In this document: positions 6,729 through 52,802 of the stretch, one piece after another | Position numbering within the stretch: the first letter of the stretch is position 1 | Layout of the letters: each line of letters opens with the position of its first letter | Position numbers and translations under genes: made by a program | Notes under the pieces: generated by a model | What the model was told of the DNA's origin: nothing | Seen by the model: the letters and a program-made list of their open reading frames with translations, nothing else | Database searches by the model: none | Source: an archaeon | Lineage (GTDB): Archaea; Nanobdellota; Nanobdellia; Pacearchaeales; GW2011-AR1 | Assembly (NCBI GenBank): GCA_043811855.1 | Contig: JBDRMT010000026.1 | Coordinates: forward strand, 1 to 53,336 | Direction of reading: 5' to 3' | Length of the DNA stretch: 53,336 nucleotides

Positions 6729-6865
6729 AATAAACTAATCTCCCTTTTTCAATCCTCTTATTATTAGTATTATTTTAACTTAAACACGCGAACTACTCTT
6801 ACATAAAATTCTTTAAGGTTACCAGCAAATTCTTTTTATAGAATACTAATAAAAAACCATCCTTT

Positions 6866-25253: not shown

Positions 25254-25386
25254 AAATAATAATCTATAATCATATTATAAAAAGAAATCTGTTTTAGGAT
25301 ATAAGTATCTCACAAACACAACACGCGAGACTTCTCTTAACTGCCCAATAGTTTATAATTATAATAATTACTAAGAATATAAATAA

Positions 25387-45564: not shown

Positions 45565-47247
45565 ATGGTTATAAAGAATTCAAAAATAATAAGATATTTT
45601 AAGGATAAGAGAATTCTTATTGCAGGAGTAAATGTTGAAGATCAAGAAGCAAACAACATAGATTTACATTCATTATTTAAAACTGCATTCAAAAAAGTAA
45701 TAACCTTTGATTTAAGAAAACAATATTTTTTACATGGTAGCAAAACTTTAAATGAAAACTTTATAAATATTTTAAAAAAAGAAACTCCAGAGTATATACT
45801 TCTTATATTAGGTTATGATGAACTTGATTTAGAGTCTCTAAAAAAAATAAAAGAAATATGCCCAAATACCAAGGTTTTTATACAATATGGTGATGATCGA
45901 TGGAAATTTGATGACTGGGCAAGATACTACTCATTGTTCTCAGACTATGTATTAACTACAGAAAAAGAAAACTCTTATTATAAAGAAGATGGAATAAATG
46001 ATGTTTACCCCTGGTATGGAGTTGATATAAAACTTTTCAAACCTAATAATCTAAAAAAAATCTATGATACTTCTTTTATTGGATGCCCAATGTCAAATAG
46101 AGGGGATTATGTCAAATTCTTAACAGATAAAGTAAATATAAAATTATTTGGAGGAGGATGGGATGCATATCCAGAACTAAAAAAAGTTTATAAAGGCTAT
46201 TTAGATTCAGAAGAATATTCTAATACTATCAACAAGACTAAAATAAATATAAGTTTTTCAAAATCTTATTATCCTGGAAGAGGAGATACTCATTTTAAAT
46301 CAAGACTTTTTGAAGTTTTTGCTACTAACTCTTTTTTACTTGTAGAATATTATCCTCAATTAAAACTTTATTATAATAAGTACTATGATAAGATATCATT
46401 CAACTCAAAAAATGAACTTCTTAAAAAAATAAAATATTATCTTGAGAATGAAGAAGAAATGAAAAAAATGACAGAATATTTTTATAAAGAAACAATTAAA
46501 AATTATTCTTGGGAAAAACAATTAGAAAATCTACTACATATTCTATATAAAGATAGGGATAGAAAACCAAAAAAAGAACTTCCAAAATTAAAAAACAAGA
46601 TTATAGAATTAAATGAAGAAGACCTTAAAAAACCATCAGACTATTTAAAACAAAAAACAAAAAGTTTTGATTATATATGTTTTAAAAAAGATGAAACTTT
46701 ACCTTCAAAATATAAAACTTATTTTCAAATATATTCTTTAGAAAAATCTAAAAAACAAATAAGTTGCTGTGATTATCATCTTTATTCAAAAAAGCTAGGA
46801 GATTATATGCTTTTTACTGCAAAAAGAGCCTTTGAAACCATTGAAGATAAAAATAATTTTAATAAATTGTTAAATATAAATCAGATAGCAGTAACAAAGA
46901 ACTTCTTTTTTAATAATCTTAAAAAATTCAAAAAAATATTTAATAATGATACTATAGATTTTATTAATAATGATAATACTGTTTTTATTTCCATACCCTT
47001 AGTGCAAATTAAAAACCTAAGGATCAAGAGTGATAATGAGATTAATAAAGCTTTTAGAATGAAATTTTTTGATAAACTTTATCTATTAATTCAATCTAAA
47101 AAAATAATATCAAATAGATATATTTATGATTTTTTTATAGAATCTCTGTTTAGAGGAGATTTTTTGTTACTAAAGTCATTTTTTGGATATATCTTTAACA
47201 AAGAAAATTTAATAAGGCTTGTAGCAGTTAAAAGAAGTGTAAACTAA
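45565..47247 (+). CDS. CgeB-like (DUF3880-type) glycosyltransferase with extra C-terminal domain
   Basis: HFKSRLFEVFATNSFLLVEY and LKKIKYYLENEEEMKKM resemble the CgeB/Glyco_trans_1_2 C-terminal region. The last roughly 230 aa are unassigned. Confidence 0.5.
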   Translation: MVIKNSKIIRYFKDKRILIAGVNVEDQEANNIDLHSLFKTAFKKVITFDLRKQYFLHGSKTLNENFINILKKETPEYILLILGYDELDLESLKKIKEICPNTKVFIQYGDDRWKFDDWARYYSLFSDYVLTTEKENSYYKEDGINDVYPWYGVDIKLFKPNNLKKIYDTSFIGCPMSNRGDYVKFLTDKVNIKLFGGGWDAYPELKKVYKGYLDSEEYSNTINKTKINISFSKSYYPGRGDTHFKSRLFEVFATNSFLLVEYYPQLKLYYNKYYDKISFNSKNELLKKIKYYLENEEEMKKMTEYFYKETIKNYSWEKQLENLLHILYKDRDRKPKKELPKLKNKIIELNEEDLKKPSDYLKQKTKSFDYICFKKDETLPSKYKTYFQIYSLEKSKKQISCCDYHLYSKKLGDYMLFTAKRAFETIEDKNNFNKLLNINQIAVTKNFFFNNLKKFKKIFNNDTIDFINNDNTVFISIPLVQIKNLRIKSDNEINKAFRMKFFDKLYLLIQSKKIISNRYIYDFFIESLFRGDFLLLKSFFGYIFNKENLIRLVAVKRSVN

Positions 47248-47256
47248 TCTAATTTA

Positions 47257-47430
47257 AAATGAAATCAAAAAACATATTAATAAAACCTGTGAAAATCAAG
47301 AATATTATTAACTTATACAATTACAAGGAGAGTATACTGGAATCTATAAGCAAGAATACACTAGCACCCTAAGTTTGTAGGATATTAATACATAATAAAA
47401 TTTAAACCAAAAATAAATGAAATCAAAAAA
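47257..47430 (+). repeat. spacer element bounded by an exact 16-nt direct repeat that contains the start of the flippase gene
   Basis: aaatgaaatcaaaaaa occurs at 47257-47272 and 47415-47430. The internal block 47298-47390 is homologous to 51378-51470. Confidence 0.8.
47259..47372 (+). CDS. candidate 37-aa peptide ORF inside the spacer element
   Basis: The product is MKSKNILIKPVKIKNIINLYNYKESILESISKNTLAP*. It shares in-frame KNIxNLYNxK and SKxxLA blocks with the ORF at 51351-51473, including synonymous differences. Confidence 0.35.
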   Translation: MKSKNILIKPVKIKNIINLYNYKESILESISKNTLAP

Positions 47431-48994
47431 AGAAGGACCTGGTGAAATTGATAATTATCTTAAAAGGCTAGTTAAAACTTCTATTTTTGTTTTTTTAAGC
47501 TTAATACTATCTAAAATATTTACCTATCTTTACAGAATTATAATTGCAAGATCTTTTGGAGCAGAAGTATATGGATTATATTCTCTAGCTATGATGGTTA
47601 CTGGAATTTTAATAGCTTTTTCAGCATTAGGATTAGGAGCTGGGATTTTAAGATATTTTTCTTATTATAGAGGGAAAAAGGAAACAAGTAAAATAAAATA
47701 TATTTTAAGATCTTCTTCAAAAATATTAATCTTATCAAGTATATTTTTTATGCTATTTCAGTTTTTTTCAGCAGAGTTTATTGCTGTAAATCTATTTCAT
47801 GATGAAAGTCTTATATTATACTTAAAATGGTTTAGTATTACAATCCCCTTACTAACAATAGGATATATTTTTATATACGCTTTAAAGTCCTTTGAAAAAA
47901 CAAATTGGTCTTCTTTTTCAGAAAATATCTCTCAAAACTTAGTTCAATTTATTTTTATTGTGTTATTAATCTTTTTAGGTTTAAGAGAAATTTCAATAAT
48001 GTTTTCACATATTGCAGGAGCTGCATTTTTATTTATAATAGGGTTTATAATTTGTAAATATAAATTACCTGAAATTTTTAAGAGTTATAAATTAAATAAA
48101 AAAGAAAAAAGCAAGGTAAGAAAAGAATTATTTAACTATTCTTGGCCATTAATGCTTTTTACAATAATTTCCTCGTTTTTCTATTGGATAGATACATTTG
48201 CAATAGGTTATTTTCAAAATACACTTGAAGTTGGACTTTATAATGCAGCAGTCCCAATAGTTTCTCTTCTTTATATTGCTCCAACAATATTTGTCCAACT
48301 GCTTTTTCCACTAATTACAAAAGAATATGCAAAAAAGAATTATAATACAATAAAAGAGCTTAGTAAACAAGTAACAAAATGGATATTAATCTTAAATTTA
48401 CCAATGTTAGCAATTATGCTCTTATTTCCTGGAACAATTCTAAATATTCTTTTTGGAGCAGAATTTGTAACTACAGCAACAGAAAACGCTTTAAGGTTAT
48501 TAGCAATAGGAGTATTTTTTCCTGCAACACTCTTTATATCAAACAACCTAATATCTATGGCAGGAAAATCAAAAACAATCCTTTTAAATATGGTAGTTGT
48601 AGCCATAGTTAACATAGTATTGAATATTCTTTTAGTTCCAAAATATGGAATAGAAGGTGCAGCATTTTCAACAATGATTTCATCTGTTTTACTTGGATTA
48701 ATGTTCTTACTTCAAGGAAAATATTATTTATCAATAGTCCCATTTAGAAGGAAAATGTTAAGAATAGTTCTTGCAATAATTATTCCATCTATTATAATCT
48801 TTTACTTAAGAACCATAATTGAAATAAATATTTTAAATGTAATCACTGTTGCAATATTCTTTTTATTAATCTATATTCTATCCATAATAGTAACAGGATG
48901 TTTAGATAGAAATGATATTATGATTATAGATTCTTTTTTAAAAGGACATAAAAATTTAAAAGGTCTTTTTCATAGTGTTGAACATAAAGTATAA
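47417..48994 (+). CDS. wzx: oligosaccharide/polysaccharide flippase (Wzx, MOP superfamily)
   Basis: 525 aa with about 14 TM segments and the typical polysaccharide-biosynthesis-protein layout. Confidence 0.8.
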   Translation: MKSKKEGPGEIDNYLKRLVKTSIFVFLSLILSKIFTYLYRIIIARSFGAEVYGLYSLAMMVTGILIAFSALGLGAGILRYFSYYRGKKETSKIKYILRSSSKILILSSIFFMLFQFFSAEFIAVNLFHDESLILYLKWFSITIPLLTIGYIFIYALKSFEKTNWSSFSENISQNLVQFIFIVLLIFLGLREISIMFSHIAGAAFLFIIGFIICKYKLPEIFKSYKLNKKEKSKVRKELFNYSWPLMLFTIISSFFYWIDTFAIGYFQNTLEVGLYNAAVPIVSLLYIAPTIFVQLLFPLITKEYAKKNYNTIKELSKQVTKWILILNLPMLAIMLLFPGTILNILFGAEFVTTATENALRLLAIGVFFPATLFISNNLISMAGKSKTILLNMVVVAIVNIVLNILLVPKYGIEGAAFSTMISSVLLGLMFLLQGKYYLSIVPFRRKMLRIVLAIIIPSIIIFYLRTIIEINILNVITVAIFFLLIYILSIIVTGCLDRNDIMIIDSFLKGHKNLKGLFHSVEHKV

Positions 48995-49916: not shown

Positions 49917-51347
49917 ATGGCAAAAGTCTTACTAGTTCAACCAAACAAAAATCTGCAATTAAATACAACTTTCTATAAAACAGAAATGCCTATTAGTCTA
50001 GTTTATATGGGAACTGCAATTGAAGAGAAACACGATGTAAAAATCTATGATAGAAACTTAAATGTTAGTGATTCTGATTTTTTAAGATTTTTAAAAAGAT
50101 ATAACCCAGACATAATTGGTTTCACACTAATGACTTCTGAAATGATAATTGATTTTATGCATCTTGGAAAAATAATTAAAAAAGAATTTCCAGAAAAAAT
50201 AATTATTGTAGGAGGAGTGCATACAACAATAGAACCTGATTCAGTTTTAAATGAATCTTATGTAGATTATATAATAAGAGGAGAAGGTGAAGAAACATTT
50301 TTAGAGTTCTGCAATACTTTTGATAAAAATCCTAGAGATTTAAAGAAAATTAAAAATATTAATCATAATCCATTAAGACCTTTTGTAAATATGGATGATT
50401 TAGAACTTCCAAATTATAATTTAGTTAATTTAAAGAAATATGGAACTTATTTTATACATCTAAGTAGAGGATGTCCAGGTAATTGTACTTTTTGTTATAG
50501 TTGTGGAATGTGGGGGGTTAATAATAGGCCTTTAGTTAGAAGTTATGGGACTGAAAAAATAATGAATTTTTTTAAGAAAGTTGTTAATGAATATGATTTA
50601 AAGTATTTTACAATTTCTGATGATAATTTTATACCTTTTAAATCAAGAGCTATTAAGGTTTGTAATTTTTTAAAGGATTATAATGTACATTTTTTCTGTT
50701 ATGGAAGAGCAGATTATGTAAGTGATGAAATATTAAGACCTTTAAAAAAAGCAGGATGTCATACTATCCAAATAGGAGTTGAGTCTGGAAGTCAAAGAAT
50801 CTTAGATCTTCTTAATAAAAGAACAACAATAAAACAAAATGCTGATGCAATCGCTTGCTGTAAAAGAAATAAAATACACTGCGATGCTAGTCTTATGATT
50901 GGAATGCCAACAGAAACTAGAGAAGATTTAAAGATGACTCTAGATTTTCTTAAAAAAACAAGACCCAACACAGTAAATTTAAAAGTTTATAATCCTCTTC
51001 CTGGTCCTCCTTTATTTGATTATTGTGTTGAAAAAGGTTTATTAAAAAAACCAGAAAATCTAGAAGGTTGGAGTAAATGGGCAGGAGGTTTTTTCAGAGT
51101 CCAACATAATGTTAGTGAAATTCCAAATCAAGAACTTATGGCAGCTTCAAGAGAAGGAGAAAGTATAGATTATTATAAAAATAAGTTTAAAAAATTTATA
51201 TACTGGTTAAAAGCAGGAAATTGGGATTATGTATTAAGACAATCAAGATTACTTGTAAAGACTCCAAGAGGGTTAAAAATACCCTTAATAGGTTATTTAA
51301 AAGCTCCAGATACTTATGATGAAAATAAGCCTGAAAGAAATTTTTAA
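49917..51347 (+). CDS. cobalamin-binding (class B) radical SAM protein (paralog of 44136-45563)
   Basis: The B12-domain pattern is LVYMGTAIEE...IIVGGVHTT...IRGEGE. The radical SAM motif is SRGCPGNCTFC. Confidence 0.85.
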   Translation: MAKVLLVQPNKNLQLNTTFYKTEMPISLVYMGTAIEEKHDVKIYDRNLNVSDSDFLRFLKRYNPDIIGFTLMTSEMIIDFMHLGKIIKKEFPEKIIIVGGVHTTIEPDSVLNESYVDYIIRGEGEETFLEFCNTFDKNPRDLKKIKNINHNPLRPFVNMDDLELPNYNLVNLKKYGTYFIHLSRGCPGNCTFCYSCGMWGVNNRPLVRSYGTEKIMNFFKKVVNEYDLKYFTISDDNFIPFKSRAIKVCNFLKDYNVHFFCYGRADYVSDEILRPLKKAGCHTIQIGVESGSQRILDLLNKRTTIKQNADAIACCKRNKIHCDASLMIGMPTETREDLKMTLDFLKKTRPNTVNLKVYNPLPGPPLFDYCVEKGLLKKPENLEGWSKWAGGFFRVQHNVSEIPNQELMAASREGESIDYYKNKFKKFIYWLKAGNWDYVLRQSRLLVKTPRGLKIPLIGYLKAPDTYDENKPERNF

Positions 51348-51349
51348 AA

Positions 51350-51602
51350 AATGAAAAACAATAAATTAAAATTTAAAAAGAATATTAGGAATTTATACAA
51401 TCATAAGGGGATATGTGGTACTCTAGAAAGCAAGAGTAGCCTTGCGTGTAATGTTTATGAAATACTAATATAATCTATAAAATATGAATATAAAAGTTAA
51501 TATAAATAAAATAAATAACTCTTAAACTTACATGCTTAAACTACTCTTGCTAGTAAGATTATAAAATACTGAAACTAACACAAAACAATGAAAAACAATA
51601 AA
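51350..51602 (+). repeat. second spacer element, bounded by an exact 16-nt direct repeat that contains the start of the downstream GT gene
   Basis: aatgaaaaacaataaa occurs at 51350-51365 and 51587-51602. The internal block is homologous to 47298-47390. An internal 11-nt inverted repeat pairs agcaagagtag (51429-51439) with ctactcttgct (51541-51551). Confidence 0.8.
51351..51473 (+). CDS. candidate 40-aa peptide ORF inside the spacer element
   Basis: The product is MKNNKLKFKKNIRNLYNHKGICGTLESKSSLACNVYEILI*. It is a paralog of the ORF at 47259-47372. Confidence 0.35.
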   Translation: MKNNKLKFKKNIRNLYNHKGICGTLESKSSLACNVYEILI

Positions 51603-52802
51603 AGAAAAAAAAGAATCATATTTTACTTTGCAATGGAACCTCAAGTTTATCAATATAAATTTGCAAAGGCTTTAAGAGAAAGAGGTTATGAAACAATTTT
51701 ATTTACAATATCTGAAAAATATAAAATAAACTATGATTTTTATAACCAGGCATTTGATAAAATTTATTGTTCTGATTTTGAATTTAGAGGAGAAAATATA
51801 AAAAACATAAAATATCTTCTAAAGAAAGGACCCAAACTTCTTTATTTTTTAATAAAATCAAAACTAATAAAACCCGATGTAGTTATTGGTCTTTCAGGAA
51901 TAAATTGGCAAGTAAAATTTGCAAGAAAATATTTTTATAAAAAAATTCCTTTTATATTTTTTACTCATGATATGAGATCTCATTTTTTTGAATCAAAAAA
52001 AAGTGCTTTAAAACAAAATCTAGAATTTGAAATAGAAGCAGAAAAATATAATTTTGAAAATGCAGATGGAATAATTCATAAAGGAGCTCCAGAAGGGTTA
52101 GAAGCTATTCAAGGAAGAATCTTTAACAAGGTTAAATTACCAAAACTTCAACTAAGCTTTGAACCTTATTGCTCTAAAGAATTTCAAGTACCTATAAATA
52201 AAGATAAACTTTCAAAAAAAGATAAAGAATTACATTTAGTATATGTAGGTTTTTTTTGGACTAATCAAGGAGAAGCAGGTTCACATTTCTTTAACAAACT
52301 ATTAGACCAAAAAATTCATCTTCACTTATATATTACAGGAATAGGAGATGATCTTTCAAAAGAAGAAAAATTAGATTATCTTAATGATTTTTTTCCAGGA
52401 TGTAAAGAAAATAAATATTTTCATATTCATCCAACCCTTCCTCCCAAGGATTTAATTCCAGAAATTTCTAAATATGACTTTGGATTATTTCCATTGATTC
52501 CTCTTTCAAAAGAAAATATAGAACCAAAGTTTTGCGCATCAAATAAAATAGCTTCTTATTTAGAAGCTGGATTACCTCTAATAACTCCTGAGGAACTTAT
52601 TTTTTTAAATAAAACCTTAAAATCTTATGGATTAGATATAATTTATAATGATAAAAACATAATGGGTTTAAATAAGAGGTTAAAAAAATTAGATTACGAA
52701 GATTTAATTAATAAACTTAAAAAAATGAGAGAAGAATATAGTATAGAAAAAAATATTAACAAACTTCAAGAGTTTATTGAGGAGGTAATTAAAAATAAAT
52801 AA
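51588..52802 (+). CDS. GT-B-fold glycosyltransferase (GT4-like)
   Basis: The C-terminal CASNKIASYLEAGLPLITPEE resembles the GT4 sugar-donor-binding helix. The overall length and N-terminal Rossmann-like half also fit. Confidence 0.5.
   Translation: MKNNKRKKRIIFYFAMEPQVYQYKFAKALRERGYETILFTISEKYKINYDFYNQAFDKIYCSDFEFRGENIKNIKYLLKKGPKLLYFLIKSKLIKPDVVIGLSGINWQVKFARKYFYKKIPFIFFTHDMRSHFFESKKSALKQNLEFEIEAEKYNFENADGIIHKGAPEGLEAIQGRIFNKVKLPKLQLSFEPYCSKEFQVPINKDKLSKKDKELHLVYVGFFWTNQGEAGSHFFNKLLDQKIHLHLYITGIGDDLSKEEKLDYLNDFFPGCKENKYFHIHPTLPPKDLIPEISKYDFGLFPLIPLSKENIEPKFCASNKIASYLEAGLPLITPEELIFLNKTLKSYGLDIIYNDKNIMGLNKRLKKLDYEDLINKLKKMREEYSIEKNINKLQEFIEEVIKNK

Follow-up and report, generated by a model that had tools for sequence, protein, structure and literature searches.

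Gene-start duplications around a palindromic repeat family in a Pacearchaeales genome

[quoted passage not shown] Rickettsia palindromic elements (RPEs; Ogata et al. 2000, as reviewed) are palindromic repeats that lie between genes and also in frame inside genes (PMC10969869). Here we describe a palindromic repeat of ~92 bp in an archaeal contig, JBDRMT010000026.1 (assembly GCA_043811855.1; GW2011-AR1, Pacearchaeales, Nanobdellota), of which a stretch of 53,336 nt, referred to below as the window, was analysed. Two copies of this element lie within inserts in the window (ins1 and ins2, the first and the second), and each insert is bracketed by an exact 16-nt duplication of the start of the gene downstream. 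The DPANN genome assembly to which the contig belongs comprises 1.0 Mb in 88 contigs, is 74% complete and has 28% GC; C4, C37 and similar designations denote contigs of this assembly. Ultra-small symbiotic archaea have almost no non-coding DNA, which raises the question of how selfish repeats persist in their genomes.

The element is a genome-specific, non-coding palindromic repeat that is MITE-like in kind and RPE-like in behaviour. In common with MITEs such as Correia/NEMIS, ERIC and RUP it is small, non-coding, multicopy, mostly intergenic and lineage-specific, with inverted ends, and those elements can also create open reading frames (ORFs) and alter expression (PMC10969869, PMC3184786). 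Short length, lack of coding capacity, many dispersed copies and terminal inverted repeats are all features that it shares with MITEs in general, but it lacks their fixed-length duplication abutting the ends. In MITEs this duplication lies against the inverted repeats and there is a cognate insertion sequence (IS), whereas here neither was found in the 74%-complete assembly and the duplications, 10–43 bp long, lie at a distance from the ends and centre on start codons. The likeness to RPEs lies in the palindromic structure, the dozens of copies in a small genome, and the placement both between genes and in frame within them, where one open frame adds a peptide loop. RPEs are larger (~100–150 bp, against 92 and 62 nt for the two forms found in this archaeal host) and the hosts are unrelated, which makes the analogy a functional one only. 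To our knowledge RPEs have not been reported to duplicate gene starts, and we know of no mobilising enzyme either for RPEs or for the element described here. Repetitive extragenic palindromic (REP) sequences and the REPINs that they form are similar in being ~100-nt hairpin inverted doublets that number tens to hundreds per genome, are vertically kept and species-specific, and show an orientation bias. Unlike the system of REPINs and REP-associated tyrosine transposases (RAYTs), the present one has no Y1/RAYT gene in the assembly, its arms are AT-rich rather than GC-rich, and some of its copies lie in frame within genes. It also differs from casposon/Cas1 integration, which leaves a 14–16-bp duplication abutting the ends, in that no Cas1 was found in the 74%-complete genome and the repeats do not abut. 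In the literature searched, including two reviews (PMC11602168, PMC10969869), gene-start duplication around such elements was not found.

Duplicated gene starts at two inserts

The first insert lies between a glycosyltransferase-like gene (45565–47247, + strand; Pfam Glyco_trans_1_2, E = 6e-19), which stops at a TAA at 47245–47247, and a gene for a Wzx-like flippase (47417–48994, +; 525 aa; Pfam Polysacc_synt/MatE) whose homologues are annotated as flippases of Pacearchaeota/Nanoarchaeota and match it in length (507–525 aa). The 16-mer AAATGAAATCAAAAAA occurs exactly at 47257–47272 and again at 47415–47430 (both +), with mismatches directly outside it on the left (a/t) and on the right (c/a). 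The downstream copy holds the working ATG of the flippase at 47417, and the upstream copy corresponds to positions −2 to +14 of the same start. The left context thus reads GTAAAC TAA tctaattta AAATGAAATCAAAAAA, followed by 142 nt and then by AAATGAAATCAAAAAA and GAAGGACCT. Nine nucleotides separate the upstream stop from the first 16-mer, and 11 nt separate it from the duplicated ATG at 47259. This ATG opens a 37-codon ORF (MKSKNILIKPVKIKNIINLYNYKESILESISKNTLAP; 47259–47372, +) that reads through the spacer into the element's open frame, contains KNIINLYNYK... and ends at a TAA in the element's 3′ arm. Within the 142 nt we found a left spacer of 25 nt (47273–47297, +), a long-form copy of the element (47298–47393, +; nhmmer E = 4e-12, 72.9 bits with the covariance model, 70% identity to the family consensus), and a unique, A-rich right spacer of 21 nt (47394–47414, +), delimited by information content. 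The left spacer is outside the family consensus, and only C61:3408–3433 resembles it (in the left flank at C61:3400–3440, CTGTGGAGAAATAAGAT against CTGTGAAAATCAAGAAT). That the closest flippase homologues overlap their upstream gene supports 47259 as the old operon position, and the upstream 16-mer is probably the original flippase start site, now heading a junk ORF. Alleles at the empty site would be expected to read the stop, 9 nt and AAATGAAATCAAAAAAAGAAGG, without the insert.

The same arrangement is present at the second insert, where AATGAAAAACAATAAA occurs exactly at 51350–51365 and 51587–51602 (both +) and encloses 221 nt. The upstream copy lies 2 nt past the stop of a radical-SAM gene (49917–51347), with its ATG at 51351 being 3 nt past that stop, and the downstream copy holds the ATG at 51588 of a glycosyltransferase-like gene (51588–52802, 404 aa). 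This insert is composite, with a long-form element copy on the + strand (51378–51473; fold z = −2.4) and an inverted short-form relative of ~62 nt on the − strand (51515–51572; nhmmer E = 1.7e-8). Its upstream ATG opens a 40-codon ORF (MKNNKLKFKKNIRNLYNHKGICGTLESKSSLACNVYEILI; 51351–51473, +). The core of the element in ins1 (47298–47390) aligns with 51378–51470 at 69% over 94 nt, and both duplications begin 1–2 nt ahead of the downstream gene's ATG and extend to its codon 5. The first-pass annotation of this DNA had described the exact 16-mer pair with the real ATG in its second member, the 142 nt between the copies, the 37-codon ORF opened by the upstream ATG, the homology of the two cores and the occurrence of two such duplications in one cluster. 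Re-reading of the sequence, the ORF listing, the alignment of the cores and the second exact pair agree with each of these.

In this genome of 28% GC, gene starts are rich in A and in lysine, and three chance nulls were therefore used. At 400 random genome positions the longest exact flanking repeat was 15 nt (once) and never 16. When the flanks of different copies were paired with one another, the mismatched pairs gave p ~0.001–0.002 for each 16-mer, and the probability that two gene starts of the genome share a 16-mer window was 7–9e-6. Genome-wide, seven genes have an exact copy of their start region, ATG included, of at least 16 nt within 520 nt upstream, against 0.2 expected. At least 15 nt of such a copy is present in eight cases against 0.4 expected, three of which enclose the palindromic family (ins1, ins2 and C37:9989/10141). 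In favour of chance identity between two A-rich, lysine-codon-rich, start-like sequences, ATGAAATCAAAAAA also opens two other genes (C62, C81) and ATGAAAAACAATAAA is found before another element copy. Given a probability of ~8e-6 per gene-start pair and the genome-wide excess at 16 nt and above, this explanation is not tenable and its likelihood is close to nil. The start duplications at ins1 and ins2 are therefore genuine.

A family of palindromic repeats

The first-pass annotation had proposed a search for further copies of the core. Iterated nhmmer on the assembly converged on 67 long-form copies, a covariance model recovered 56 at E ≤ 1e-3, and a profile seeded on shorter look-alikes added 37 copies of a short form of ~62 nt; long and short copies together make up ~0.8% of the assembly. 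The copies are dispersed over many contigs and have no conserved ORF. The unit measures ~92 nt, as information content reaches background 6 nt to the left and 5 nt to the right of the 81-nt profile, and in ins1 it places the ends of the element at 47298 and 47393. The consensus can be written aaaaaTATTAGTAACTTATACAAcTACAAG-variable-AAGCAAGAGAAGTCTCGCGTGTTAAGTTTATAAGATACTAATAtaa, and its ends form an imperfect inverted repeat of 16–19 bp (TATTAGTAAC...GATACTAATA), in which 83% of cells over 16 arm pairs are paired, against 34–45% when the arms are slid. Copies are ~68% identical to the consensus and the best pair not due to gene duplication is 74% identical; from this divergence, the family looks uniformly old. 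A model search found the element absent from 48 other species of the genus and from 150 genomes of 84 genera of the order, and a search with the conserved-arm pattern gave no match in viral contigs. In metagenomes the only true matches were four contigs of the same population (sample Ga0180007), 99.6–100% identical to the genome. A solo-arm scan of the assembly found no long partner with the same ends. The ends of several upstream genes fall inside the 5′ arm of the element or a few bases ahead of it, with TTAGTAAC supplying TAG/TAA.

The palindrome could reflect either DNA structure or a selected RNA fold. Across 44 copies, arm positions were paired in 81.4% of cases against 81.1% in shuffled columns, and covariation was 0.145 against 0.141. 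An RNA selected on a given strand would tolerate G·U but not A·C mismatches, and the arms hold 81 G·U and 86 A·C. The family consensus folds well (z = −3.0); in ins1 the hairpin has decayed and the RNA fold is no better than that of shuffles (z = +0.76). Because there is no covariation and A·C is as frequent as G·U, the element is palindromic DNA, decaying after being laid down, and not a selected RNA fold. A riboregulator was rejected on these grounds and on the lack of strand asymmetry and of any Rfam match at E ≤ 1. Several other identities were tried and rejected. A tRNA or split tRNA was set aside, as ARAGORN found no tRNA at any copy. A promoter in the 3′ arm does not fit, in that GATACT is rare before genes (12 in 546 upstream regions), element-to-ATG distances are broad (4–67 nt), and the arms do not match the genome's own signal near −29. 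The latter, found by positional k-mer enrichment in genome-wide upstream regions, is a promoter-like AAACC(C/T) followed by TTTAAATA/TTTATA that peaks ~29–35 nt before the ATG, a position consistent with leaderless or short-leader transcripts. Adenine mutagenesis of the kind produced by diversity-generating retroelements was dismissed as the source of copy divergence, A columns being as conserved as others. Integron attC sites were set aside on a reading of the sequence only, as the arms have no RYYYAAC/GTTRRRY cores and the copies are dispersed, not arrayed. A bulge-helix-bulge intron was rejected on the finding that the flanking ORFs are complete, separate genes.

We then considered where the copies lie. 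Of the 67 long-form copies, co-directional gene pairs have 30 in sense against 6 in antisense (binomial p = 7e-5), convergent spacers hold 12 and divergent ones 13, and most copies adjoin ordinary housekeeping genes. Five copies are inside ORFs, all five in sense and with the frame open, and are translated through the element. The host genes encode a TruB-like protein (C39:35265–36170), a LysA-like decarboxylase (C87:5827–6933), an Alba-like protein (C18:14817–15260), a Hint-containing protein (C67:20662–23133) and a kinase fusion (C29:4186–6426). The frame used in these copies yields KNIxNL(Y/Q/D)..., a peptide that the two window ORFs share and that is encoded by the element's 5′ arm; the KNIxNLYNxK peptides that the first-pass annotation had suggested looking for are thus found again, in frame, inside five genes. 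Relative to solved structures of homologues, the LysA-like decarboxylase has ~24–33 and TruB ~54 extra residues exactly at the element; these are in-frame insertions into conserved proteins. A solo 3′ arm is present just upstream of the TruB insert as well (SLSDTK ... GLLDTK).

The small ORFs ahead of the flippase and of the next glycosyltransferase-like gene are a different matter. ORFs enter the element in another frame at C24 and C19 and elsewhere not at all, their stops differ, and the small ORF ends 45 nt (ins1) and 115 nt (ins2) before the real ATG. For these reasons the 37- and 40-codon ORFs are, as far as the sequences tell, by-products and not conserved genes.

Origin of the duplications

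The first-pass annotation had interpreted ins1 as an insertion that duplicated its target. This stands insofar as a foreign spacer surrounds a dispersed repeat and the start is truly duplicated, but as a target-site duplication the 16-mers would have to abut the element, and they do not: unique sequence of 25 + 21 nt (ins1) and 12 + 113 nt (ins2) sets them off from its ends. Among the 67 long-form copies, 65 have no exact flanking repeat above chance, and the genic copy in the LysA-like gene leaves no room for a 16-bp repeat. Flanking-repeat scores exceeded the null 95th percentile at 12 of the 67, against 3.4 expected. Duplication lengths range over 10–43 nt. Decayed start duplications of 10–28 nt were found at C25:3498, C54:1322 (where the upstream ATG is lost), C24:17256 and C19:29989, and a divergent family member at C37 has a duplication of 19 nt. 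The footprint is also seen without the element. An unrelated 84-nt two-hairpin insert in iscS, of another sequence family, abuts a 43-nt repeat, and other inserts of 39–48 nt with a start duplication are found at C20, C39 and C62. At C4:10230–11100 (locus L097:1400–2270, − strand), a unit of ~850 nt made up of the element, a 45-codon ORF and an NYN-nuclease gene is bracketed by TAAAATGCTAAA, a 12-nt repeat that is the start of livG. In the inserts at C62:21893–21936 and C4:24343–24426, part of the duplicated start is present once more in inverted orientation, and this part could base-pair with the duplicated start in RNA.

Flanks shared between copies bear on what was copied. At C37:9120–10160 (locus L098:320–1360) two divergent element copies, 92% identical, lie 900 nt apart. 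Downstream copy B is bracketed by the 19-nt duplication of its gene's start, ATGGTGTATAAAAAA; upstream copy A carries on its left ATGGCGTATGAAAAAA, a diverged ATGGTGTATAAAAAA, and its own downstream gene starts with ATGGTTGAAAAG. Because copy A carries the start of gene B, the start copy moved together with the element at this locus. Two short-form copies on C21 share the left flank ATGGTGCATGAGAATAAAACC, and the element on C24 is preceded by ATGAAAAACAATAAAA, the start of window gene 51588, a match that alone could be chance given the number of comparisons made. In all three cases the shared flank begins at an ATG or a few bases before one. Since flanks are shared between copies, the copied unit is not bounded by the inverted ends. 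Taken together, the unique DNA on both sides of the element within each insert, the ATG-led shared flanks, the range of duplication lengths, and the same footprint at unrelated hairpin inserts and at the element-NYN module argue that a transposase with cuts at the inverted ends is probably not what produced the duplication. The earlier remark that this is not standard IS or MITE behaviour is borne out by duplications that are set off from the ends, variable in length and centred on starts. No Y1, TnpB, DDE_3, DDE_4 or Cas1 gene was found in the 74%-complete genome, and the RAYT family PF01797 had no match in it, with positive controls in six genomes.

We lean, if only slightly, towards the view that the 142 nt of ins1 go back to a segment with the element that was copied into a break at the start of the gene, either through template switching or as a staggered break was filled in, with survivorship deciding which events are seen. 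Under this scheme, element-containing DNA would have entered wzx, and in the same way the next glycosyltransferase-like gene, somewhere in the first five codons, and the joining would have duplicated the 16 bp that lay between two breaks or switch points staggered relative to each other. An intact start would have been rebuilt by the downstream copy, the upstream copy would have kept the old operon position 11 nt (ins1) and 3 nt (ins2) past the preceding stop, and the upstream ATG would now open a meaningless ORF into the element, ending at a stop codon in the 3′ arm. Selection would keep only those events that regenerate the start, that is, where the duplicated piece contains the ATG; if only such events survive, duplications would be seen at gene starts. 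It is at this final step that the scheme is weakest.

Several observations weigh against copying into a break. We found no empty site in relatives, which the first-pass annotation had proposed looking for: the nearest flippase is 56% identical and has different neighbours, and the family is missing from 198 related genomes. Both 16-mers are perfect although the elements that they enclose are ~30% off the consensus, and with equal decay the expectation would be 0.7^16, or ~0.3%, for each. Perfect 16-mers imply an event much younger than the family with a donor outside the 74%-complete assembly, an element that diverges unusually fast, or an upstream copy under selection; fast divergence of the element relative to its flanks may arise, for example, by exchange among copies. 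The best matches to ins1 and ins2, as possible donors, are 75–78% identical, and their flank-to-flank similarity is borderline (score 15 against a null maximum of 14). The two 16-bp repeats, at the near-identical offsets of −2 to +14 and −1 to +15, look like a fixed stagger. Finally, neutral selfish DNA does not account for the 30:6 sense bias, nor can a promoter in one arm do so, because the arms are symmetrical.

Some of these points would be accounted for by a selected regulatory leader, with wzx and the next glycosyltransferase gene controlled, at translation or transcription, jointly by the duplicated start, the short ORF and the hairpin. The hairpin would be opened or closed by ribosomes that start at the upstream ATG, and the upstream 16-mer would stay identical under selection. 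The perfection of both duplications around diverged elements and the sense bias fit this idea, as do the ATG-containing left flanks that travel with the element and the ATG-led ORFs that enter it at seven or more loci. We nevertheless judge such a leader improbable. The absence of covariation and of a G·U excess and the decayed fold of ins1 speak against a functional hairpin; the element is entered by ORFs in either of two frames, their stops differ in position, and in the two inserts they end too far from the ATG for termination-reinitiation coupling. Moreover, most copies either lack an upstream ATG or are found in convergent spacers, and the older duplications show decay, the one at C54 having lost its ATG. 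The near-identical offsets would instead fit cut-and-paste movement or an integrase with a 16-bp stagger (casposase/Cas1-like or an unknown transposase), whose mobile unit would be the whole 142- or 221-nt piece, an old, diverged copy that moved recently. Such non-replicative movement would explain fresh duplications around diverged copies, and the 19-nt repeat at C37 could be 16 nt plus three chance A's. Yet the ends of the three inserts share nothing beyond the 92-nt core, the genic copy in the LysA-like gene adds about the core only, other duplications vary in length, and none of the enzymes sought was found in the 74%-complete genome, the ends of the one IS4-like pseudogene (described below) being unrelated; we regard this explanation, too, as unlikely.

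The elements might also be scars of gene-cassette shuffling, marking the junctions of recombined accessory blocks (wzx with two radical-SAM genes, a glycosyltransferase-methyltransferase block, toxin-antitoxin pairs, NYN genes), with the duplicated starts as recombination joints. Four wHTH-MNT/HEPN modules (wHTH, winged helix-turn-helix; MNT, nucleotidyltransferase) and both NYN genes of the genome adjoin copies, the gene-carrying unit on C4 is bracketed by the livG start, and on C2 an ORF for a small membrane protein is enclosed by a 48-nt duplication of promoter plus start. The repeats at ins1 and ins2, however, enclose only 142 and 221 nt and no gene, and most copies have housekeeping neighbours, leaving shuffling very unlikely. 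Beyond copying into a break, it is conceivable, though doubtful, that DPANN archaea have an undescribed insertion process targeted to gene starts, in which hairpin DNA, sometimes with an NYN-nuclease gene, is inserted along with sequence neighbouring it and the stretch from the transcript start to about codon 5 is duplicated; such a process might be linked to RNA or the transcription bubble, or be mobilised by NYN. In eight cases the left edge of the duplication lies 1–11 nt before the ATG, where leaderless transcripts would begin. If true, this would amount to a new class of mobile DNA that spares genes, one suited to genomes in which intergenic space is almost lacking.

Implications and associated genes

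The repeat family is a real, lineage-specific palindromic repeat of RPE/MITE-like type with start-duplicating insertion footprints. It survives within genes by keeping the frame, and at gene starts by bringing a second start sequence with it. Should insertion regularly duplicate the start, this would offer a means of gene-sparing invasion of compact genomes that we did not find described in the literature searched. For annotation, such inserts give rise to spurious small ORFs, misplaced start calls and seeming interruptions of operons in surface-glycan clusters, and of all loci in these organisms such clusters are the likeliest to influence contact with the host.

The case at C2:2928–3237 is a gene-sized version of the start-duplication footprint. 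There, a 48-nt duplication consisting of a promoter-like sequence and ATGAAAAAA flanks a 214-nt stretch on both sides; this stretch encodes a membrane protein of ~70 aa, which makes use of the duplicated start. The NYN unit on C4, whose nuclease gene occupies C4:10236–10832, directly follows a wHTH-MNT/HEPN pair, and the only other NYN gene (C86:699–1244) has a short-form element and a similar GC-rich hairpin upstream. Four paralogous wHTH-MNT genes, two of them with HEPN partners, each adjoin an element copy (C52:15209–15886, C79:16952–17620, C21:2337–3403 and C4:11086–12029).

At C28:130–1620 (locus L084) we observed a degenerate transposase of the IS4 family (DDE_Tnp_1) with an internal TGA, split frames and ends of approximately CAGTAGATTGAA. 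This pseudogene is just downstream of the element copy at C28:1627, which follows the stop of rtcB; it was rejected as an autonomous partner, as its ends differ from those of the element.

Two more copies of the family are present in the window, both on the − strand. A third long-form copy (25298–25379) lies 48 nt upstream of a cytidylyltransferase-like gene and is without a flanking duplication, and the short-form profile identified another short-form copy at 6764–6824. The metagenome contig Ga0180007_10060086 (locus L092), from the same population, joins the ends of C69 and C61 at 99.8% and 98% identity, which places these two contigs next to each other.

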